From positions 2,688,001-2,752,000 of the forward strand of contig OY762209.1 of assembly GCA_963665295.1 (NCBI GenBank): a DNA stretch of 64,000 bases, given 5' to 3'. Position 1 is the first letter of the stretch; each line of letters starts with the position of its first letter. The translations under genes were made by a program, and so were the position numbers. The notes beneath the pieces are model-generated. The model searched no databases, was not told the DNA's origin, and worked only from the letters and a program-made list of their open reading frames with translations. Shown one piece after another: positions 11,770-33,378 of the stretch. The stretch is from Syntrophorhabdaceae bacterium (lineage in GTDB: Bacteria > Desulfobacterota > Syntrophorhabdia > Syntrophorhabdales > Syntrophorhabdaceae).

Positions 11770-11983
11770 ATGAAATATGACCTCCTTCACCTTCCGGTCA
11801 AAAAGATCGTCTACCATGAAGGTCTTGAGTCCGACGAGAAAGGGCGAAGGCAAGGGAAAATAAAAATGGATCTATGGGAATTGCCTCCCATAGATCCCAA
11901 AGATTTGAACTCAACAAACGGGGTTTGCTGAGAGTCTTACATGGCTCCCCGGGCAGGACTCGAACCTGCAACCTACTGGTTAA
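11770..11983 (+). pseudogene. Probable C-terminal remnant of a tRNA-targeting recombinase (large serine recombinase-like)
   Basis: LLHLPVKKIVY...KIKMDLWE..; with one extra G at about 11920 the frame continues GFAESLTWLPGQDSNLQPTG* antisense through the tRNA 3' half. Confidence 0.45.
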
Positions 11984-12018
11984 CAGCCAGCCGCTACTGC
12001 CGATTGAGCTACCGAGGA
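11942..12018 (-). tRNA. tRNA-Asn (GTT)
   Basis: Reverse complement TCCTCGG-TAGCTCAATCGGCAGTAGC-G-GCTGG-CTGTTAA-CCAGT-AGGTT-GCAGG-TTCGAGT-CCTGC-CCGGGGA-GCCA folds as a cloverleaf with encoded CCA. Confidence 0.96.
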
Positions 12019-22211: not shown

Positions 22212-23471
22212 ATGAATTACTGCGAGTATAAGAACGGTGAATTGTATTGCGAAGAAGTGCCCGTCCGCGAGATCGCGGAGGCGACAGGCACGCCGGTTTA
22301 TGTTTACAGTCTGAGGACTATCGAAAGACACTTCCGGGTGTTCAACGAAGCCTTCCGGACGATCCCGCACCTTACATGCTACTCCTGTAAGGCCTGTTCC
22401 AACCTTGCGATCCTGAAGACCATCGGGAGACTCGGGGGAGGGATAGACATCGTATCGGGCGGTGAACTTTACCGGGCCCTGAAAGCGGGTATTCCGGCTG
22501 AGAAGATAGTCTTTTCCGGGGTCGGGAAGACGGAAGAAGAGATAAGGTCGGCCGTTGAAGCGGGTATCCTCATGATCAACGTGGAATCGGAGGACGAACT
22601 GGAAGTGGCCGCCGCTGTGGCGAGCCGCATGAAGGCAAGGGTGCCTGTCTCTATCAGGGTGAACCCGGAGATAGACCCCAAGACGCACCCGTACATAACC
22701 ACGGGTTTGAAGAAGAACAAATTCGGGGTGCTCTGGGAAGATGCATTCCGGCTCTATAAGAAGGCGCGGGACGACAAATACCTCGTGCCTGCGGGTATAT
22801 CCTCCCACATAGGCTCCCAGATCCTGGAACTCACGCCCTTTGTAGAGGCCATGCGATCCCTGAAAGGGATGGTGTCGCAGCTTGCGGGCGAGGGAATACC
22901 TCTTTCCTATATCGACATCGGCGGGGGACTCGGCATTACGTACAAGGACGAGTTGCCGCCTCATCCGGAAGACTACGCGCGCGTGGTTGAGGAGGAGTTG
23001 AAAGGCTCGGGACTCACGGCGATATTCGAGCCGGGAAGGGTCGTGATCGGAAACAGCGGAATATTCGTCACCCGGCTTCTCTATATCAAGAAGACGTCGG
23101 GGAAGACCTTTTATATTATTGACGGGGCCATGAACGACCTGGTGAGACCTTCTCTCTATGACGCGTACCATGAGATTACCCCTGTCAAGGCCGGAGACGG
23201 GTTGGGCCTGAAGGTGGACGTGGTGGGCCCCATTTGCGAATCCGGTGATTTTCTTGCCAGGGACAGGGAGATGCCTCAACTGGAAAGAAACGAACTGCTT
23301 GCGGTCAGGGGCGCGGGCGCCTATGGCTTCTCCATGTCCTCGAATTACAATTCGAGGCCGAGAGCCGCGGAGGTGCTCGTAAAGGGGAACGAATTTTTTG
23401 TGATACGAAAAAGAGAGACATTCGAAGACCTGATAAAAGGGGAGACGATCCCATCATTTTTGGAGGTGTAG
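22212..23471 (+). CDS. lysA: Diaminopimelate decarboxylase
   Basis: GTPVYVYS, YSCKA, HIGSQI, DIGGGLG, EPGR, GPICESGD, YNSRPR. Confidence 0.97.
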   Translation: MNYCEYKNGELYCEEVPVREIAEATGTPVYVYSLRTIERHFRVFNEAFRTIPHLTCYSCKACSNLAILKTIGRLGGGIDIVSGGELYRALKAGIPAEKIVFSGVGKTEEEIRSAVEAGILMINVESEDELEVAAAVASRMKARVPVSIRVNPEIDPKTHPYITTGLKKNKFGVLWEDAFRLYKKARDDKYLVPAGISSHIGSQILELTPFVEAMRSLKGMVSQLAGEGIPLSYIDIGGGLGITYKDELPPHPEDYARVVEEELKGSGLTAIFEPGRVVIGNSGIFVTRLLYIKKTSGKTFYIIDGAMNDLVRPSLYDAYHEITPVKAGDGLGLKVDVVGPICESGDFLARDREMPQLERNELLAVRGAGAYGFSMSSNYNSRPRAAEVLVKGNEFFVIRKRETFEDLIKGETIPSFLEV

Positions 23472-23475
23472 TAGC

Positions 23476-24288
23476 GTGGTTGAATTGGAATTTTTTAAGA
23501 TGAGCGCAAGCGGGAACGATTTCATCGTCGTCGATAACAGGGATGGGAAGGTGAACGGGGGTTTCTCCGATGTCCCCGGACTTATCAGGAAGATATGCCG
23601 GAACCACCACTCCGTAGGCGCCGATGGCGTAATACTGATAGAGAATTCGGTGGAACACGATTTTCGCTGGTCCTTCTATAACGCCGACGGCTCGGAAGCG
23701 GAGATGTGCGGAAACGGCGGCCGTTGTGCCGCAAGGTTTGCCTACATGAACGGCATCGCCGGGCAGCAGATGGCTTTTGAGACTATTGCCGGGGTCATAA
23801 AGGCGGAAGTGAACGGGACACGGGTCAAATTGCAGCTTACCACCCCCGTTGACCTGAAGCTTGACTACCCCGTGGGACTCGAAGATAAGGAGATATTCCT
23901 GAGCAGCGTCAATACAGGAGTGCCCCATGCGGTTCTTCTCGTTGATGACGTGGATCATATGCCCGTGGAGGACCTGGGGCGGCGCGTCCGCCACCACAAG
24001 GCCTTTGGAGAGAAAGGCACCAACGTGGACTTCGTGGAGGTCATGGACAGGGAAAACATCAAGATCAGGACCTACGAACGAGGTGTCGAGGGAGAGACTT
24101 ATGCGTGCGGGACCGGCGCCGTGGCCGTGGGTGTAATACTCAAGCAGAAGGCGCTTGTGGAGAGTCCCGTAAACATTCGGACGAGGGGCGGAGAGATACT
24201 TAAAGTCTACCTTGACGGGGAAGTCTATCTCGAAGGGGACGCCAAACTGATATACATAGGCAGGCTACAGGAAGAAGCACTTTTATAG
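23476..24288 (+). CDS. dapF: Diaminopimelate epimerase
   Basis: GNDFI, NADGSEAEMCGNG, TGVPH, ERGVEGETYACGTG. Confidence 0.97.
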   Translation: MVELEFFKMSASGNDFIVVDNRDGKVNGGFSDVPGLIRKICRNHHSVGADGVILIENSVEHDFRWSFYNADGSEAEMCGNGGRCAARFAYMNGIAGQQMAFETIAGVIKAEVNGTRVKLQLTTPVDLKLDYPVGLEDKEIFLSSVNTGVPHAVLLVDDVDHMPVEDLGRRVRHHKAFGEKGTNVDFVEVMDRENIKIRTYERGVEGETYACGTGAVAVGVILKQKALVESPVNIRTRGGEILKVYLDGEVYLEGDAKLIYIGRLQEEALL

Positions 24289-24300
24289 AAAGGAGACGTC

Positions 24301-25188
24301 ATGGACTTAAGAGGCATTTACACGGCTTTGGTGACCCCCTTTGCCGGGTACAAAGTGGACGAAGAGGCCCTGAAGAGGCTTATAGAATTTCAACTGGAAA
24401 ACGGTATCAACGGCATCGTGGCCTGCGGGTCCACGGGCGAGGCAGCCACCCTTTCCTACGAGGAGCACGCGAGGGTGATCGAGCTTTCCATCAAGTACGT
24501 GAACGGCGCGGTGCCTGTGATCGCGGGGACCGGGTCGAACAGTACCACGGAAACGGTCGAACTGACGCAGAGCGCCAGGAAACTCGGCGCAGACGGTTGC
24601 CTCCTTACGACGCCCTACTACAACAAACCCACTCAGGAAGGCCTCTACAGGCATTACAAGAAAGTGGCCGAAGAAGTCGATATTCCTATCATCCTCTATA
24701 ACATCCCCGGGAGGACAGGGATTAATATGTCGCCCGAGACCATTGCAAGGATTGCGCAGATCCCGAATGTAGTGGGCATAAAAGAGGCATCCGGATCGGT
24801 TCTCCAGGTCGCCGAGATATTCAGACTGACAAAGGGGACCTTTACCATCGTCTCCGGAGACGACAACCTATTTCTCCCCATGATGAGCGTGGGCGCGGTG
24901 GGCGTCATATCGGTGATTTCAAACCTTATGCCCCGGGCATTGAAGGAGCTTTACAAGACGTTCCTGGAAGAGAAGGATGTGGAGAAGGCAAGGGACCTCA
25001 ACGTGGGTCTTCTGCCGATCATGCAGGCCATGTTCGTGGAAACGAACCCCATCCCGGTAAAGGAGGCCCTCTACCATATGGGTCTCGTGGAGAAAGAGTT
25101 CAGACTTCCCCTATGCCCGCTCTCTGAGGGGAATAGCGCCTTCCTCAAGGGTATCCTCAAAGAATACGGGCTGCTGAGGAGGGAGTAA
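24301..25188 (+). CDS. dapA: 4-hydroxy-tetrahydrodipicolinate synthase
   Basis: TALVTPF, GSTGE, PYYNKP, YNIPGRT, GIKEASG, ETNPIPVK. Confidence 0.97.
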   Translation: MDLRGIYTALVTPFAGYKVDEEALKRLIEFQLENGINGIVACGSTGEAATLSYEEHARVIELSIKYVNGAVPVIAGTGSNSTTETVELTQSARKLGADGCLLTTPYYNKPTQEGLYRHYKKVAEEVDIPIILYNIPGRTGINMSPETIARIAQIPNVVGIKEASGSVLQVAEIFRLTKGTFTIVSGDDNLFLPMMSVGAVGVISVISNLMPRALKELYKTFLEEKDVEKARDLNVGLLPIMQAMFVETNPIPVKEALYHMGLVEKEFRLPLCPLSEGNSAFLKGILKEYGLLRRE

Positions 25189-25976
25189 TGGTCAGGATTA
25201 TCATAACCGGCGTTGCAGGCAAGGTGGGCAGCGCCATACTGAGGCTGGCCCTTGACGACGAAGGGGTAGCGGTGACAGGCGCGCTGGAAATGAAGAGCCA
25301 CCCCCTCATCGGCAAGAACCTTGATATGGCAGGTGCTTCATCGATCCGGGTCGAGGACGACCTGTCCCGCATTATAGACGGTTGCGACGCAGTGATCGAT
25401 TTCACCGACCCTAAGGCGTCCCTCGAACATTTCCGGATAGCCGCCGCGAGGAAAAAGGCGATAATCATAGGCACCACCGGTTTTTCCGAAGAGGCCCTTA
25501 ACGAGATAAAGACAACCCCCGGGGTCCGGGTGGTTATTTCTCCCAATATGAGCGTGGGCATGAACCTCATGTTCGACGTGGTGGAAAGGCTTTCACGCAT
25601 ACTCAAGGAAGGCTACGACATAGAGATCGTGGAGATGCACCACCGGTTGAAAAAGGACGCTCCCAGCGGTACCGCCGTCAAACTGATGGAAGTTGCCGAG
25701 GCGGCGCAGCCCGACAGGGATTGGATTGAAATCTTCGGAAGAAAGGGCATTATCGGAGAGAGAAAACCCGATGAAATAGGGGTCCTTGCCCTAAGGGGCG
25801 GCGACGTGGTGGGCGAGCACACGGTAATGTTCGCCGGTCCCGGCGAACGTCTTGAAGTGACCCATAGGGCTTACTCTCGGGAGAACTTTGCAAGAGGAGC
25901 CATTGTGGCCGCCAAGTGGATTGCCGGCAAAGGTGAAGGCATTTACTCCATGAAGGATGTGCTGGGCCTGACATAG
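25188..25976 (+). CDS. dapB: 4-hydroxy-tetrahydrodipicolinate reductase
   Basis: IDFT, IGTTG, EMHHRLKKDAPSGTA, RGGDVVGEH. Confidence 0.97.
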   Translation: MVRIIITGVAGKVGSAILRLALDDEGVAVTGALEMKSHPLIGKNLDMAGASSIRVEDDLSRIIDGCDAVIDFTDPKASLEHFRIAAARKKAIIIGTTGFSEEALNEIKTTPGVRVVISPNMSVGMNLMFDVVERLSRILKEGYDIEIVEMHHRLKKDAPSGTAVKLMEVAEAAQPDRDWIEIFGRKGIIGERKPDEIGVLALRGGDVVGEHTVMFAGPGERLEVTHRAYSRENFARGAIVAAKWIAGKGEGIYSMKDVLGLT

Positions 25977-26222
25977 CGTGCGCCGGTCAGGGCCGGCATT
26001 GTCTTCCCCGGCCGATGTCCGTTCCTCGATTCTGACCTTCGGATGCACCCCTTGTGCATACAGGGACAACATAATTATCGTTTTTCTCCATTCCCCTGTC
26101 TTTACGGCCCATCGCCCCCGGGATGCCTCCTGTTGCCGGAAGGGGCCCTCCGCCATGAAAGTGAACAATGTACCGCACATAGGGACTTTCCTGGCGTCAG
26201 GGAAGGCGGATTGCGGGAGCGC

Positions 26223-26240
26223 TTGTTAAATATTTCTCTT
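26223..26240. promoter_or_regulatory. Possible Rex operator upstream of rex
   Basis: TTGTTAAATATTTCTCTT matches 14/18 positions of TTGTGAAATATTTCACAA. Confidence 0.4.
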
Positions 26241-26317
26241 GCAATTGACCCCGATAACTGTTACATAACATACGAATGCAAAAAAGAATTAAATGATTTT
26301 ACAGACAGGTGTCGAAA

Positions 26318-26959
26318 ATGGCTAAATATTCCAAAATTCCGGAAGCAACAATACGAAGGCTGTCGAGCTATCTGAAATGTCTCGAAGACCTCGAAACCAA
26401 GAACGAAAAGGTCGCGTCAAGCGCCCTTTTGGCAAATATGTGCAACGTAAATGCGGCCCAGGTAAGGAAGGATTTTGCCTACTTCGGCGAGTTCGGTGTA
26501 CGGGGCATGGGTTACAATGTCAAGGAATTGAAGTTCAATATCAAAGAAATCCTGGGCATCAACAGGGAGTGGAAGATAGGCGTGGTCGGCATCGGCAACA
26601 TGGGCAGCGCCCTTCTGGTGTACAAGGACTTCCTGAAACAGAACTATAAGATCGTAGCGGCCTTTGATATCGATCCCGCGAAAGTGATCGGACATATTTC
26701 GGAAAAGATGGGAAGGCCGGTGGAGATCCTTCATGTGGACATACTAAAAGAGGTGGTAAAGGCACGGGGCGTAGAGATAGGGATAATTACCACACCTCCC
26801 AGCGAGGCCCAGAAAGTTGCAAACCTGCTTGTAGACGCCAACGTGAAGGGTATTCTTAATTTCTCACCTTCCCCTGTGACTGTCCCCAAGCATGTGAAGC
26901 TGAGGAACCTTTTCTTTACGTCAGCCCTTGACAACCTGGTATACTACCTTTCGAACTGA
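26318..26959 (+). CDS. rex: Redox-sensing transcriptional repressor Rex
   Basis: IPEATIRRL, QVRKDFAYFGEFGVRGMGYNV, VGIGNMGSAL, GILNF. Confidence 0.96.
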   Translation: MAKYSKIPEATIRRLSSYLKCLEDLETKNEKVASSALLANMCNVNAAQVRKDFAYFGEFGVRGMGYNVKELKFNIKEILGINREWKIGVVGIGNMGSALLVYKDFLKQNYKIVAAFDIDPAKVIGHISEKMGRPVEILHVDILKEVVKARGVEIGIITTPPSEAQKVANLLVDANVKGILNFSPSPVTVPKHVKLRNLFFTSALDNLVYYLSN

Positions 26960-26968
26960 GGTTGGTTG

Positions 26969-27178
26969 ATGAGTAAAATGCTGGGCACCATCATTGAGAT
27001 GTTCGTATATTCGGCCATCTTCATGATTATCGTCCTCGTCTCGGTGAAGATAGTCGGTTCGGTATTTTCAACCGATTTCGAGAAGAAGATCGCCGAAGAG
27101 GGCAATGTGGGACTCGCCATTGTCTGCGGCTCCATGTTTATAGGCCTTGCCCTTCTCCTCTCATCCATCGCGAGATAA
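26969..27178 (+). CDS. Small membrane protein, DUF350-like
   Basis: Two hydrophobic segments flanking EKKIAEEGNVGLAI. Confidence 0.7.
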   Translation: MSKMLGTIIEMFVYSAIFMIIVLVSVKIVGSVFSTDFEKKIAEEGNVGLAIVCGSMFIGLALLLSSIAR

Positions 27179-27239
27179 TGGGTATGATCTATCGATCGCC
27201 CACGGTGTGCCGGACTTGCAGCCTTAGGTTGAGGATCGC

Positions 27240-27974
27240 ATGAAAAGAGCCTTTTTTGTAACGGGAACGGATACGGGCGTGGGAAAGACCCTCGCCGCGG
27301 TAAGTCTGGCCGCATACTTCAAACATAAAATGGGACTCAACGTGGGCGTAATGAAGCCCTTTGAAACGGGCCTGCCCGTGGACCGGACCGAGTTGTTCCC
27401 CTGCGACGCAAAATCCCTCAAGGACATGTCAGGCACAAGCGACGACCTTGCCGTGATCAATCCATGTTCTTTCAGATTGCCCCTTTCGCCCGAAGCCGCG
27501 GCTTCCGTGGAAAGGAAAATAATAGACCTTGCGGTGGTGGAGCGGACCTACGAGAAGATCGTCGAAAGCCATGACATTACCATCGTCGAGGGAGCGGGCG
27601 GGGTCCTCGTCCCTATAAAGGAGGATTTTTTCTTCTCCGACCTCATAAAAAGATGGGCTTTGCCTGCTCTTGTCGTTTCACGGCTCGGTCTCGGCACAAT
27701 CAACCATACGCTTCTCACCTGCCGGTTTCTTCAATCCCAGGGGATCAAGGTGATTGGCGTAATCCTTAACGATACGGACGGATCGGGCGATACCGCCGCG
27801 AAAACAAACCCGGATGTGTTGAGGAAGTATCTGACAGTGCCGGTCCTCGGCGTTCTTCCTTACCTTACGGAGAAAGAACGGGAAAGCCTCGACGCGGGGC
27901 GACTCGCCGACATGCTCGCCGCCCACGTCAAGGTGGGAATTATTTACGACGAAGCAGTTCTCCAATCTCCTTGA
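27240..27974 (+). CDS. bioD: Dethiobiotin synthase
   Basis: FVTGTDTGVGKT, KPFETG, VEGAGG, LGTINHTLL. Confidence 0.96.
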   Translation: MKRAFFVTGTDTGVGKTLAAVSLAAYFKHKMGLNVGVMKPFETGLPVDRTELFPCDAKSLKDMSGTSDDLAVINPCSFRLPLSPEAAASVERKIIDLAVVERTYEKIVESHDITIVEGAGGVLVPIKEDFFFSDLIKRWALPALVVSRLGLGTINHTLLTCRFLQSQGIKVIGVILNDTDGSGDTAAKTNPDVLRKYLTVPVLGVLPYLTEKERESLDAGRLADMLAAHVKVGIIYDEAVLQSP

Positions 27975-29127: not shown

Positions 29128-30321
29128 TCACCCCTTTTTTATATATCGTTTCCCCATACGGATGAAGCCGTCGAGGGAAGCGAGTATTTTCTCCAGCGGC
29201 ACACAGTAAGCGATTCTGAAATAACCTTTTCTCCCGAATCCCCTGCCGGGCACTACCATTATTCTTTCTTCCTGCTGTAGTGCCTTCACGAAGTCCAGTT
29301 CATCCGGTACGGGTGACCTGGGGAACATGTAAAAGGCGCCGGTGGGTTTCACGCATTCGAACCCCGCCTCTATGAGAGTATTGTAAAGGACATCCCGCTT
29401 CTTCTCGTAATCGGAAATGCTCACTGAAGTCTTCTGAAATCTCCCCACGATCCTTTGGAAAAGGGCGGAGGCATTCACGAACCCGAGGGTCCTGATGGTA
29501 ATCGTCAGGGCGGACACTAAAAGCTGGTACTCCTCGATACGGGGTGAGATGGCGATGTATCCGATCCTTTCGCCCGCGAGGGCCAGGTCCTTGGAATGGG
29601 ACGTGACGGCGAGCACGAGATCATACATATCGAAGATATTGGGAAGGCGGGTGCCGTCATACACAAGCTTCCTGTATGCGTCATCACTCACGATGAAAAT
29701 ATCCTGGCCTTGTTCCCTTTTTTCATTCAAGAGTCTGGACAGTTCCCGCAGGCTTTCCTCATTGTAGACGGCCCCGGTGGGATTGTTTGGGCTGTTGATC
29801 AGCACTACCCTGGTTTTCGGGGTTATGGCGCTTTCAATGCGCCCCACGTCGAGTTGAAAGTCTTCGCCGGTTTCCACAAACCGGGAAACGCCCCCGCAGT
29901 TCTTTACATAATTCTTGAATTCCCAGAAGAAAGGACTCGGTATGATCACCTCGTCACCTCTATTGAGAATGCTCTTGAAGATCATATTGAGGCCGCCCGC
30001 GCACCCTGCGGTCATAAAAACATGGGAGGCGGTGAAAGGGAGACCGCGCTCTTCAGCAAGGTAATCGGCTATCTCGCCACGCACTTCCTCGTACCCGTTA
30101 TTGGACATATATCTGTGCATCCCTGGTGTGGGATCGGCAACTGCGTCGACAAGGGCCCTGTTCAATGCCTCCGGGGGTTCGGTATCGGGGTTCCCGAGAG
30201 AAAAATCATAGACGCTGTCTTCCCCGTAGAGTTTCTTTATCTTGATGCCTTCCTCGAACATCCTTCTTGTCCAGCCTTCCTGGTCCTTGATCAGCCTCTG
30301 AATTTCCTTGGATACAATCAT
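29128..30321 (-). CDS. Class I PLP aminotransferase paralog (probably aromatic amino acid/prephenate related)
   Basis: DFSLGNP, NSPNNPTG, SDDAY, SHSKDLALAGERIGY. GAGGAGG SD before ATG 30321. Confidence 0.92.
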   Translation of the reverse strand: MIVSKEIQRLIKDQEGWTRRMFEEGIKIKKLYGEDSVYDFSLGNPDTEPPEALNRALVDAVADPTPGMHRYMSNNGYEEVRGEIADYLAEERGLPFTASHVFMTAGCAGGLNMIFKSILNRGDEVIIPSPFFWEFKNYVKNCGGVSRFVETGEDFQLDVGRIESAITPKTRVVLINSPNNPTGAVYNEESLRELSRLLNEKREQGQDIFIVSDDAYRKLVYDGTRLPNIFDMYDLVLAVTSHSKDLALAGERIGYIAISPRIEEYQLLVSALTITIRTLGFVNASALFQRIVGRFQKTSVSISDYEKKRDVLYNTLIEAGFECVKPTGAFYMFPRSPVPDELDFVKALQQEERIMVVPGRGFGRKGYFRIAYCVPLEKILASLDGFIRMGKRYIKKG

Positions 30322-30342
30322 TAGTCCTCCTCGGGTACCAAT

Positions 30343-30370
30343 AAAAAAGCCATGGCTCGCTGCCATGGCT
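30343..30370 (-). terminator. Second intrinsic terminator of the attenuator region
   Basis: Minus strand AGCCATGGC-AGCGA-GCCATGGCT-TTTTT. Confidence 0.8.
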
Positions 30371-30378
30371 CGAAGACG

Positions 30379-30416
30379 AAAAAAAAGCCATGGGCCTTTT
30401 GCACCCATGGCTTTTT
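30379..30416 (-). terminator. Attenuator terminator hairpin
   Basis: Minus strand AAAAAGCCATGGGT-GCAAAAG-GCCCATGGC-TTTTTTTT. Confidence 0.88.
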
Positions 30417-30423
30417 GCTTATC

Positions 30424-30498
30424 TCAAAGCAAAAAAATGCCGGGGTGCAAGTTCCTAAAGTAGTAGTAAAAACCAAACACCGCCGTTTTCCGTTCCAT
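30424..30498 (-). CDS. Phe/Tyr-rich attenuator leader peptide MERKTAVFGFYYYFRNLHPGIFLL
   Basis: 24-codon ORF with an F-G-F-Y-Y-Y-F control run. Its 3' part can pair with the 5' arm of the downstream terminator. Confidence 0.85.
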   Translation of the reverse strand: MERKTAVFGFYYYFRNLHPGIFLL

Positions 30499-30505
30499 AG
30501 GTAAA

Positions 30506-30534
30506 ATTTTACTGGAAAACCAGCCGCCTGTCAA
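30506..30534 (-). promoter_or_regulatory. Sigma70 promoter of the leader/aminotransferase operon
   Basis: Minus strand TTGACA-17 nt-TAAAAT, 7 nt upstream of the leader ATG. Confidence 0.85.
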
Positions 30535-32158
30535 GGGAAAAGGGAACCGACGAAACCGGCACAAAACCGGAATATTACATTTGACGTAGCCACAAAGGAA
30601 CGTGTAGAATGAAATATTCATTACATACAGAACTGGATGACAGTTTTATAATACATATTGCCGGTGGTTTAGGGGGGGTGATGCCGTGAGCGAAGATTCT
30701 CAGTACCTTCTCAAGAACGTCATAGAACAGACCAGGCAGTCAGATTATCCATCGCTCAAACAGGATAAATATTTTGAATTATTTTCGGCCCAACAAGTCC
30801 TGAAAAAATGCCGCTTTAATCCCGATTCTCCGGAAATAGAATCAGGGAATATTGGTGGGGATGGAGATGGCGGTGTTGATGGGTTCTATCTCTTTGTTAA
30901 TAGGAAATTCGTTCGCGAAGATACGGACCCGTCGATATTCAAAGATCAACAGATAAGCGTGGAGATAGTCATTGTTCAAGCAAAGAACACTGCATCTTTT
31001 GAAGAAGCAGTTCCAACAAAACTTAAAGATTTCACTGAACATTGCCTTCGCTTAAATGCGGACATAGAGGAAGCTCAGCGGTCATTACTCTACAACGATA
31101 GCCTGCTCACGCTCGTCAAGAAATTCCATGACATCTACAGGCCAGCGATATCTTTGCGGCCAAAACTAAGCATACGATTCTTTCATGTAAGCCTTGCGGA
31201 CACCGTTGATCAAAAGGTTAAAGCGCGAGCAGATTTGCTAATACAAAAGGCGAAGGAATATTTTCCGGTTTCAGAGGTAGCTTATGAGTTCATCGGTGGT
31301 AGTCTCTTGCTCAGTCTATATCATCAGCAACCGGAGAGAAGGTTATCTTTACCCACATCAAGGTATTTTGATTGGCCGTCATTCGGCAAAACGGCCTATT
31401 TGTGTGTCGTCAAGCTACCGGACTACTATGGCTTTATAGCTGAAGAGGGTTCCATCCGAGAATATATGTTTGAGGCTAATGTCAGAGATCATGCGCCAGA
31501 CGTCAAAGTAAATAAGGGAATTAGGGCCACGCTTACGGCACCGGAAAATGACGATTTTTGGTGGCTCAACAATGGAATTACCGTTCTAGCATCCGACGTT
31601 TCTTATAATGACGGGGCACTCGCAATTACAGACCCAATGATTGTCAATGGCTTACAGACGTCATATGAATTATTTAAGCATTTTTCAACTGGGGGCGCGT
31701 TGAATGATGGGCGTAGTCTTATGGTAAAAGTAATAAAGACTACCGAAGAAGAAACGTCTGACCGCATTATAAGGGCCACAAACAGTCAAACAAAGATAGA
31801 ATCTATAAACCTTCACGCCACTGAAGAAATTCACAGAAAAATTGAAACCGCATTAAAGACAGTTGATCTATTCTATGACAGAAGGAAGAATTTTTATCGA
31901 AACAAAGGCATTGCAGCCACCAAGATAATAACGATTGGATATATGGCTCAGGCCGTTGCAGCCATTGCATTGCAGCAGCCAGACCATGCTCGCGCTCGCC
32001 CCACAACTGTGGCCCAAAAGAGTTACAAAGCTTTGTTTTCCGAAGAATATCCAATCTTGTTATATGCTAAATGCGCCCAAATAATGAAACGCGTTGACGG
32101 TTATTTGGACGAAAAAGGTCTTCCCCAAGGGGCAAAGCTAAATATGGTATTCTATCTA

Positions 32159-33378
32159 GTGTCACGTCACTCCTCTAATGTCGGATAAAGCCGTCTGAGT
32201 TTTATTCGCGCATCCTTCGTGGTGAATTGCCAGTTTACTTTTGCCCGGAGATTATCCCTACGGGCTTGCCAGGCAGCAACTTCGGAGCGGACCTTGGCAA
32301 TACTGTCGATCCGGCGGTCGAGGCATTGGTGAATGAGCACATTGAGTTCAATCTCCGCCATATTGAGCCAGCTTCCGTGTTTGGGTGTGTAGACGAAGTC
32401 AAAGCGGTCCCAGATGCGCTTCGCTTCCTCGGGTGGAAAGGCTTCATAGAGGGAGCCGGGTTTGTGGGTGTTCAGGTTGTCCATGACGAGAGTGATCTTC
32501 TCGGCATCTTGATAACTGGAGACAATATCCCGGACGAATTCCGCCCAGTCGCACTTTGTTCTTCTCTCCGATACGTTCGTGAGACGGGTTCCCGCTAATG
32601 GCTCGTTGGCCATAAATATGGTGCAGACACCGCAGCGCTCATACTCGTAGTCATGACGTTCAAGGCGTCCGGGAGTTTGAGGAATGGGGGTACGGGTTTC
32701 TTTAATCAACTGCCGTGGCGTCTCATCCATGCAGACTACCGGGAACTTTGGATCATACGGACGTTTATACACATCGAGCACACATTCCATGGCGGCGACA
32801 AAATCAGCATTGGCCTCCGGAGGGATGACCCACCCCTCTTGCTTCCAGGGTTTTGTTTCGTTTTTTTAAAACCCGACGCACGGTCTCATAGGATATGTTC
32901 CCGATATAATTGAGTGTCACCATTCGGTCTGCAAGCAACCGTAAAGTCCATCGGGCATACCCCTCGGGCGGTTCACTGCAGCTTAAGGCAATGAGATGGG
33001 CCTCGAAGTCGCCGTCGGCCTTCTTCTCGTAGACCCGGTCGGCCTTATGTCCGGTGAGGGCGGTATCAAGTCCTTCTTCCACGAACCGCTTCTTCACCCT
33101 GTCGATCTTCCGCATGCTGATCCTCAAGACGGCCGATATATCCTCATTCTTCATCCGATGATCCTGAAACCGGCCCTCGTCGCAATTCAAAAGGATCAAT
33201 GCATTAAGCACCTTCTGGGACTTATGATTGCCTTTCAGCACCACGCGTTCTAACTCCCTTCGCTCTTCTTGTTCGAGCGTCACCTTGTATTTCCTCATTC
33301 GGACCTCCCCATGGCTGAATGTTTGCCTTGGGGAGATTTTATACTATATCATACGACAATACAAGTGTGACGTGACAC
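32159..33378 (-). mobile_element. IS630-family insertion sequence
   Basis: Perfect 12-bp terminal inverted repeats GTGTCACGTCAC / GTGACGTGACAC, flanked by duplicated TA within a CTAG target. Confidence 0.93.
32167..33298 (-). CDS. IS630 transposase encoded by two ORFs joined by a -1 frameshift
   Basis: HTH ORF 32804-33298 (WTLRLLA) and DDE ORF (CMDE, VMDNLNTH, TPKHGSWLNMAEIE). T-TTA-AAA-AAA-C slippery run at about 32861-32870 gives VLKKNETKPW. Confidence 0.9.

Follow-up and report, generated by a model that had tools for sequence, protein, structure and literature searches.

The window analysed here, a 64,000-nt stretch of Syntrophorhabdaceae bacterium DNA (contig OY762209.1), carries on its minus strand two adjacent aminotransferase genes preceded by a short ORF rich in Phe and Tyr codons, and this arrangement raises three questions: (i) whether translation of the ORF controls transcription of the gene pair; (ii) how the position of a ribosome on it would be passed down to a terminator; and (iii) which substrates the two enzymes use. 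We consider it highly probable that the region is a ribosome-mediated attenuator with a two-terminator relay, which is on when charged tRNA-Phe or tRNA-Tyr is scarce and controls a Phe/Tyr-forming aminotransferase pair.

An earlier note had described a promoter, a 7-nt gap from TAAAAT to the leader ATG and a start without an SD, all of which are present on the minus strand at 30534-30498, as is the Phe/Tyr-rich ORF that it named. The features referred to below are, in window coordinates:

30506..30534, minus strand: sigma70-type promoter TTGACA-17-TAAAAT, hexamers at 30534-30529 and 30511-30506, 11 of 12 consensus matches
About 30499-30498, minus strand: predicted +1, placed from the promoter spacing
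30424..30498, minus strand: predicted leaderless 24-codon leader ORF MERKTAVFGFYYYFRNLHPGIFLL, without SD; ATG at 30498, TGA at 30426-30424
30457..30477, minus strand: control codons F-G-F-Y-Y-Y-F (codons 8-14), six of them Phe or Tyr
30477..30484, minus strand: segment 1, which pairs with segment 2 in this genome; the protector role is not conserved
30427..30450, minus strand: segment 2, antiterminator 5' arm, within the leader ORF (from folding, covariation and shuffles)
30399..30420, minus strand: segment 3, antiterminator 3' arm or, alternatively, 5' arm and loop of terminator 1 (from covariation and staged folding)
30379..30394, minus strand: segment 4 with a U8 tract, forming the 3' arm in terminator 1 or the 5' arm in relay helix 4:5 (from covariation and staged folding)
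30416-30382, minus strand: predicted terminator 1 (3:4), stem, followed by 8 U's
30363..30371, minus strand: segment 5, forming the 5' arm in terminator 2 or the 3' arm in relay helix 4:5 (from covariation and staged folding)
30343..30355, minus strand: segment 6 with a U6 tract, 3' arm of terminator 2 (from covariation and the U-run survey)
30371-30347, minus strand: predicted terminator 2 (5:6), a terminator-like hairpin read from the sequence
29128..30332, minus strand: SD (30332-30326) and aminotransferase 1 (AT1), ATG at 30321, 397 aa; NF005305/PRK06836.1, 517 bits
27940..29124, minus strand: aminotransferase 2 (AT2), 394 aa, starting 3 nt past the AT1 stop; NF005305/PRK06836.1, 541 bits

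AT1 and AT2 form a two-gene operon in which AT2 is last, its 3' end lying against the convergent bioD. The computed folding energy of the leader region is -71.8 kcal/mol (z = -5.8; none of 200 shuffles equally stable), and that of the antiterminator (2:3) is -26.1 kcal/mol versus a shuffled mean of -13.5, with 3 of 2000 shuffles of the segment-2 region equally stable. Of the 20,103 small intergenic ATG ORFs in the genome, 14 carry five or more Phe/Tyr codons in seven; three of these 14 begin 35-36 nt past a TTGAC hexamer, and all three carry the element. The promoter match by itself sits at chance frequency (3 found versus 2.8 expected), so its weight comes from conservation.

No Rfam leader family, such as Phe_leader or Trp_leader, reached its gathering score in the window, where the sole Rfam match is a tRNA gene (11945-12018, minus strand). 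On the plus strand, 22212-27974 holds rex and bioD, the latter overlapping the AT2 3' end by 35 nt, together with what we take to be lysA-dapF-dapA-dapB-like genes. A promoter-like site at 30581-30610 (plus strand) is divergent from the AT1 promoter; beyond it, within 30581-33298, lie a 500-aa ORF with a weak AIPR-family match (E 1.9e-8, far under the cut-off) and then two minus-strand ORFs that presumably resemble an IS630-type transposase.

The earlier note had proposed to look for conserved Phe/Tyr-rich leaders upstream of orthologues; leaders with a Phe/Tyr block, a TTGAC hexamer 35-38 nt ahead of the start and hairpins were found at 30 of 30 AT1 loci (the best 30 of 59). Adding the related leaders described below gives a set of 65 (30 AT1, 7 AT3 and 28 aroF, that is, aro-operon leaders), in which 63 have the hexamer at 35-38 nt, the search having allowed 33-47, and none has an SD-like word before the leader start. 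Start codon and segment 2 are separated by seven different distances in the 30 AT1 orthologues, all of them multiples of 3, and the frame is likewise kept in 7 of 7 and 24 of 27 members of the paralogous leader groups. The control blocks of the AT1 orthologues contain 129 Phe, 77 Tyr and 1 Trp codons, with both synonymous codons of Phe and of Tyr present. Since the offsets are all multiples of 3 and both synonymous codons are used, we conclude that selection acts on translation.

The alternative pairings are conserved as well. In the 30-row alignment, 93.9% of the cells of the ON structure (2:3 with 4:5) are paired, with 24 double-change cells versus 6.9 after shuffling (0 of 500), and 98.7% of those of the OFF structure (3:4 with 5:6), with 30 versus 8.2 (0 of 500), these double-change counts being inflated by the relatedness of the 30 sequences; controls in which the pairing was slid reach at most 57.7%. 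Antiterminator and terminator 1 share segment 3, and covariation and shuffles thus bear out the mutual exclusion that had been proposed for them.

The AT1-AT2 pair stands in tandem, some copies being partial, in 59 of 61 sampled Syntrophorhabdales-type genomes. A covariance model of the element, 37 of whose 45 rows stem from these same genomes, matches in all 61; judged by coordinates, a match stands immediately before AT1 in each of the 59 that have the pair. Most of the named records that carry this leader belong to Syntrophorhabdus or Syntrophorhabdaceae/-ales, and the cultured Syntrophorhabdus aromaticivorans UI has the same leader and gene pair. At one AT1 locus (L011; the same peptide occurs in L167) the leader has lost its stop and runs for 59 codons through both hairpins to a stop that overlaps the AT1 start; this is either a natural deregulated variant or an assembly error.

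The genome of the window has exactly three model matches below E 0.005, namely the AT1 leader and two paralogous elements:

C1:1962557, minus strand: aro leader, YYYFWYWY, with two hairpins, before a DAHP synthase-aroB-aroD-aroE-aroA-aroC-pheA-tyrA operon
C1:1661032 (L039:8799-9032), minus strand: AT3 leader, with seven Tyr codons, before a 422-aa class I aminotransferase (AT3)

The paralogues came from ORF scans and the model; a DNA search of the same genome gave no further copy below E 0.29. The codon content of the three elements follows pathway scope: Phe, Tyr and Trp for the aro-pheA-tyrA operon, Phe and Tyr for the aminotransferase pair, and Tyr only in this genome's AT3 leader. Trp codons occur in 28 of 28 aro-operon leaders, 1 of 30 aminotransferase-pair leaders and none of 7 AT3 leaders. 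This correspondence favours the aromatic specificity that the earlier note had suggested for the enzymes. AT3 is near the PRK07777 and methionine aminotransferase families but under their cut-offs; its leader is kept in 7 of 7 close orthologues, whose blocks hold 45 Tyr and 6 Phe codons, which suggests that AT3 is a Tyr-specific enzyme. The element is absent from 6 of 6 AT3 paralogues at about 48% identity.

A script recovered the aro leader at 28 of 30 related loci, and one of the other two has a model match 725 nt upstream, behind repeats. At L087 (G058:C3), a genome in which the pheA and aroC matches are fragmented, the aro leader is separated from DAHP synthase by tandem repeats of about 70 nt. 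Among the ORFs of at least 150 aa in the aro-pheA-tyrA operon, read from their N-termini, no aminotransferase was recognised, so the last step appears to be left to the attenuated pair. This genome also has a Trp and a Leu leader, each next to a promoter, before genes that we take, from their sequence, to be trpE and leuA; the Leu-rich one, with a single terminator, precedes the leuA-like gene at C1:1224683 (plus strand; L041:1184-1340). The ORF at C1:2180095, the fourth linked to a promoter, has two Trp codons; it was rejected, as it overlaps a coding gene and is without a terminator. The two IOR loci read in this genome have no Phe/Tyr leader.

Related elements reach beyond the order. The model matches in 44 of 151 genomes sampled from the phylum of Syntrophus, five of the 44 being repeats of our order that are not counted as outside it; the 35 loci read there include aromatic leaders before single PRK06836 genes, DAHP synthases, ADH synthase and IOR alpha, and the same hairpin also occurs before leuA and trpB2. 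Outside the order, the single PRK06836 genes with an aromatic leader comprise eight scanned loci plus L296. Seven of these PRK06836 leaders carry an SD, and leaderlessness would therefore be lineage-specific. A pattern scan returned at least 119 loci, with 70 aromatic leaders among the matches listed, which include S. aromaticivorans UI, a spirochaete-labelled record and an Abditibacteriales record. The terminator hairpin alone is not diagnostic, because the script's rule assigned no leader to 49 of the 119 listed matches; among the 22 of these 49 that were read, five had Trp-run leaders, one was cut off and one frame-shifted, and the rest resembled plain terminators or chance matches.

Several targets outside the core set were seen. 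In two Syntrophus records (L174/L294:1690-3132, Syntrophus buswellii; L148), a Tyr-run leader stands before a tyrosine phenol-lyase-like gene; the best PDB matches of the gene product are TPL, under the TPL family cut-off, and if Tyr shortage switches the gene on, the enzyme would serve to synthesise Tyr from phenol. Trp-run leaders stand before IOR alpha in five records labelled Syntrophales, Geobacteraceae or bacterium (L102, L112, L160, L168, L175), and a Phe/Tyr leader does so in L284. Leaders on IOR alpha hint at amino-acid synthesis by reductive carboxylation. Within the order, 9 of 15 fetched regions of extra matches have Phe-only two-hairpin leaders before a PqsE-like metallo-hydrolase of about 307 aa with a metallo-beta-lactamase fold, whose best PDB matches are PqsE at E ~1e-16 (L331-L335, L337-L339, L341). 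Related leaders (L336, L342, L105, L344, L340) have Phe codons before a thiolase gene, Tyr before the gene of an ADP-forming acyl-CoA ligase, Phe/Tyr, alone or together with Trp, before pheA, and Trp before a trpB2-like gene. The element also occurs in records labelled Leptospirales/Spirochaetes, Abditibacteriales and Thermodesulfobacteriota (L151, L199, L201, L190); its presence in the records of other phyla reflects either transfer between phyla or binning errors.

The enzymes themselves are 52% identical to each other, and both score above the NF005305/PRK06836.1 cut-off of 376 bits; the family name is generic, and the tandem duplication and the leader are lineage features here. The nearest structure to either is PDB 3ele, and an alignment indicates that both keep the PLP-binding residues. 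It is possible, although we consider it rather unlikely, that AT1 and AT2 are broad-specificity or aspartate-type enzymes, the attenuator being real and aromatic activity only one role, or confined to one of the two. In a wider phylum sample PRK06836 was found in 91 of 121 genomes, mostly as one copy; none of the 30 best-scoring single-copy loci has a convincing leader (two Phe/Tyr-rich ORFs were judged to be chance), so that the family may be broader in function. The neighbours of those 30 loci are mixed: hisC-type in seven, mnmA in three, and trpB, paaK and fabH in one each (31 of 35 neighbours scanned). The hisC-type neighbour loci are L302, L303, L310, L313, L323, L324 and L326. Against a broad or aspartate-type role, however, aromatic leaders do precede nine scanned single-copy members from outside the order, and both enzymes have Ala at the position of Lys101 of the class Ib aspartate aminotransferase of Thermus. 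In the Thermus enzyme this lysine is a contact for dicarboxylic substrates, and activity on prephenate depends on it.

How the leader would switch the operon was approached by folding with ribosome-masked segments, as the earlier note had proposed, assuming a 13-nt footprint. Masking flips the window leader from 2:3 to 3:4: the computed probability of 2:3 is 0.88-0.97 with the A site on codons 3-13, and that of 3:4 is 1.0 from codon 14, the absence of 2:3 with the ribosome at the stop being built in by the masking. In equilibrium folding, a ribosome stalled on the last Phe is enough to occlude segment 2. The equilibrium model fails, however, to reproduce switching in most relatives and was rejected as a description of the switch: 2:3 beats 3:4 in only 11 of 30 AT1, 1 of 7 AT3 and 3 of 28 aroF leaders, and even a stalled ribosome does not keep 5:6 from forming in 25 of 29 AT1 leaders. 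Because 2:3 wins at equilibrium in just 11 of the 30, the switch would have to be kinetic, that is, co-transcriptional; classical attenuators also switch kinetically. When folding was staged in transcription order, as a stand-in for kinetic simulation, with the ribosome stalled, 2:3 formed in 30 of 30 leaders before segment 4 exists and 4:5 then formed in 29 of 29 before segment 6.

Taken together, conservation, frame, covariation and ribosome-masked folding support the proposal that stalling at Phe/Tyr codons induces the operon, by the following predicted sequence of events. The ribosome would load on the 5'-terminal AUG. With Phe and Tyr plentiful, it would move on to cover segment 2, so that 3:4 forms and terminates, and transcripts that leak through would meet 5:6. 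With charged tRNA-Phe or tRNA-Tyr short, it would linger on codons 8-13, and 2:3 could pair before segment 4 is made; the free segment 4 would then capture segment 5, neither terminator would form, and AT1-AT2 would be transcribed. The earlier note had equated this with pheL/trpL logic, an equation that holds for the mutually exclusive 2:3 and 3:4 but not for the protector: 1:2 pairing, present in the window, exceeds P 0.5 in just 10 of 30 AT1, 2 of 7 AT3 and 11 of 28 aroF leaders, and removal of the AUG should consequently give read-through, not super-attenuation, in most members.

The relay from 4:5 and 5:6 to a second terminator is an addition to that earlier description. Segments 3 and 5 are near copies, as are segments 4 and 6; segment 4 can therefore capture segment 5 and disarm terminator 2 once 2:3 has formed. 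Among 30 AT1 loci, 23 have U-runs of at least four after both hairpins, six have a U-run of at most three after 3:4 but of 5-7 after 5:6, and one has 3:4 alone. In those six loci with the longer U-run after 5:6, helix 4:5 is the only visible route from ribosome to terminator.

It seems improbable, all the same, that 3:4 is the single regulated terminator, with 5:6 a duplicated spare or a translation or stability element and 4:5 incidental. The palindrome CCAUGG occurs in all four arms (segments 3-6), which pair with each other automatically, and the 4:5 core shows almost no variation, so that this helix could have arisen as a side effect when a hairpin was duplicated; moreover, 5:6 wins at equilibrium in the 25 of 29 AT1 leaders already mentioned, and the second hairpin is absent in one AT1 locus and 13 of 28 aroF leaders. 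Second hairpins called in L059 and L080 are probably false. If 5:6 and its U-run terminated without control by 4:5, however, the operon could not switch on, and the U-run has been lost after 3:4 and kept after 5:6 in two AT3 loci as well as in the six AT1 loci. A further argument comes from the trp leader, which is unrelated in sequence and has the same relay design with non-palindromic arms:

C1:4663236, minus strand, same genome: trp leader next to a promoter and before trpE; it has a 1:2 hairpin, and 4:5 connects its two terminators

A promoter-adjacent Trp leader with a true 1:2 and two terminators with non-palindromic arms was found at 14 of 16 close trpE orthologues; at a variable position, 4:5 is Watson-Crick in 12 of 14, and segment 3 stays at a G-U wobble in 7 of the 9 loci with a changed segment 4. 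Judged by sequence, the trp leader of these organisms is an independent case of the relay design, in a separate sequence family. We favour two terminators coupled through 4:5.

AT1 and AT2 most likely aminate phenylpyruvate and 4-hydroxyphenylpyruvate, aryl keto acids that would come from the pheA/tyrA pathway where it is present and probably from aryl-acid or keto-acid salvage elsewhere. Chorismate synthase was found in 35 of the 61 genomes and in 25 of the 47 that are at least 90% complete (22 of 47 without it), and prephenate dehydratase in 30 of 61 and 20 of 47, respectively; IOR is present in 57 of 61. All 26 genomes without a chorismate synthase match, which are incomplete assemblies and, as kin, not independent, keep the pair and the leader, and 25 of the 26 have IOR alpha. 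Retention of pair and leader without chorismate synthase argues against prephenate as the core substrate. Prephenate, which the earlier note had offered as an option, is thus disfavoured, and it is very improbable that the pair are prephenate aminotransferases of the arogenate route: the class I fold and weak matches to plant prephenate aminotransferase (E ~1e-32 to 1e-34) are compatible with such a role, and a joint Phe and Tyr signal would fit a step ahead of the branch point, but the Ala at the class-Ib Lys position speaks against it, as do those 26 genomes. We favour aryl pyruvates as the substrates, which lineages without aroC would take up or else make by reductively carboxylating aryl-acetyl-CoA, as methanogens and rumen anaerobes do.

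That the leader instead encodes a TnaC-like arrest peptide inducing catabolic, Phe/Tyr-degrading transaminases on excess, as could be suggested by the reversibility of aminotransferases, by the IOR, able to decarboxylate aryl pyruvates, of those 57 genomes, by the related Tyr leader before the tyrosine phenol-lyase-like gene and by an F-R-x-x-H-P in the leader peptide that looks conserved, is scarcely credible, since segment 2 is covered once the ribosome reaches the stop codon, which favours termination, so that arrest there would mean OFF and induction by excess amino acid does not fit, and since H-P varies (RP, HL, HS, RS, RL) with compensating changes in segment 3, the stop position varies, even ahead of segment 2, and the same element stands before the biosynthetic aro operon.

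There is also a wider, tentative reading, about which we remain somewhat doubtful: the relay attenuators, with two serial terminators set by a single ribosome position, may be an unrecognised family that marks an aromatic amino-acid salvage regulon of syntrophic anaerobes, in which many lineages without the shikimate pathway would make Phe and Tyr from aryl acids, Syntrophus would make Tyr from phenol with its tyrosine phenol-lyase-like enzyme working in reverse, and Phe-only leaders would flag a PqsE-like hydrolase step. If so, the salvage route would run from aryl-acetyl-CoA through reductive carboxylation by IOR to amination by AT1/AT2, and the codon mix of a leader would serve as a function label for genes of unknown role. 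The analysis offers a testable function, Phe/Tyr transaminase, for a widespread and generically named aminotransferase family, and a handle on Phe/Tyr supply in aromatic-degrading syntrophs without the shikimate pathway.

Attenuators of the his type are multi-hairpin, and Lopatovskaya reportedly predicted attenuators in delta-proteobacteria in 2010. The leader-hairpin-relay form on an aminotransferase pair is apparently undescribed, and it is widespread; the control principle is classic. The earlier note knew of no leaderless Phe/Tyr attenuator on aminotransferases in this lineage; leaderless leader peptides and Phe/Tyr leaders have each already been described in other bacteria. The literature searched gave no account of this leader family, of an attenuated aminotransferase pair or of a two-terminator relay, although the supplementary tables of PMC4833913 may list these ORFs. 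For aromatic supraoperons, the available part of PMC1173090 lists a putative attenuator and has Desulfovibrio among the organisms discussed.

As far as the accessible text of the sources goes, the attenuators of E. coli pheL-pheA, pheM-pheST and trpL (PMC11802643; PMC3082878) establish the principle, and the present element shares with them a run of cognate codons, a mutually exclusive antiterminator and terminator, and the ON state under shortage. Unlike them, it has mixed Phe and Tyr codons, no SD and no conserved 1:2 hairpin, together with a second terminator reached through 4:5, an aminotransferase pair as its target and no Rfam match. The aroR leader of the Corynebacterium glutamicum aroF operon (F-Y-F) is reported to respond to Phe and not to Tyr (Neshat 2014 in PMC11802643; PMC4046766); it likewise combines Phe and Tyr codons in one leader and exerts ribosome-mediated attenuation of aromatic biosynthesis. 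Compared by description, it differs in belonging to Actinobacteria and in targeting DAHP synthase, and the portions of these reports at hand describe no second terminator. Leaderless leader peptides are represented by 14 predicted in Deinococcus deserti (PMC4007540) and by rnTrpL of Sinorhizobium meliloti (PMC6614838), in which, as predicted here, the ORF lies at the transcript 5' end; the leaders named in the available excerpts are for Cys and Trp, with no Phe/Tyr leader on an aminotransferase and no relay described there. Chains of RNA helices in attenuation are mentioned in the accessible part of PMC4833913, and in such chains, as in the his-type systems, alternating helices pass the position of the ribosome down to the terminator, as we propose for 2:3 and 4:5. 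In contrast to these systems, so far as the available text describes them, two members of the chain each carry a U-tract here, giving an attenuator with two terminators in series that lineages have trimmed to the first or the second or have kept as both, and whose design the same organisms use for trp.
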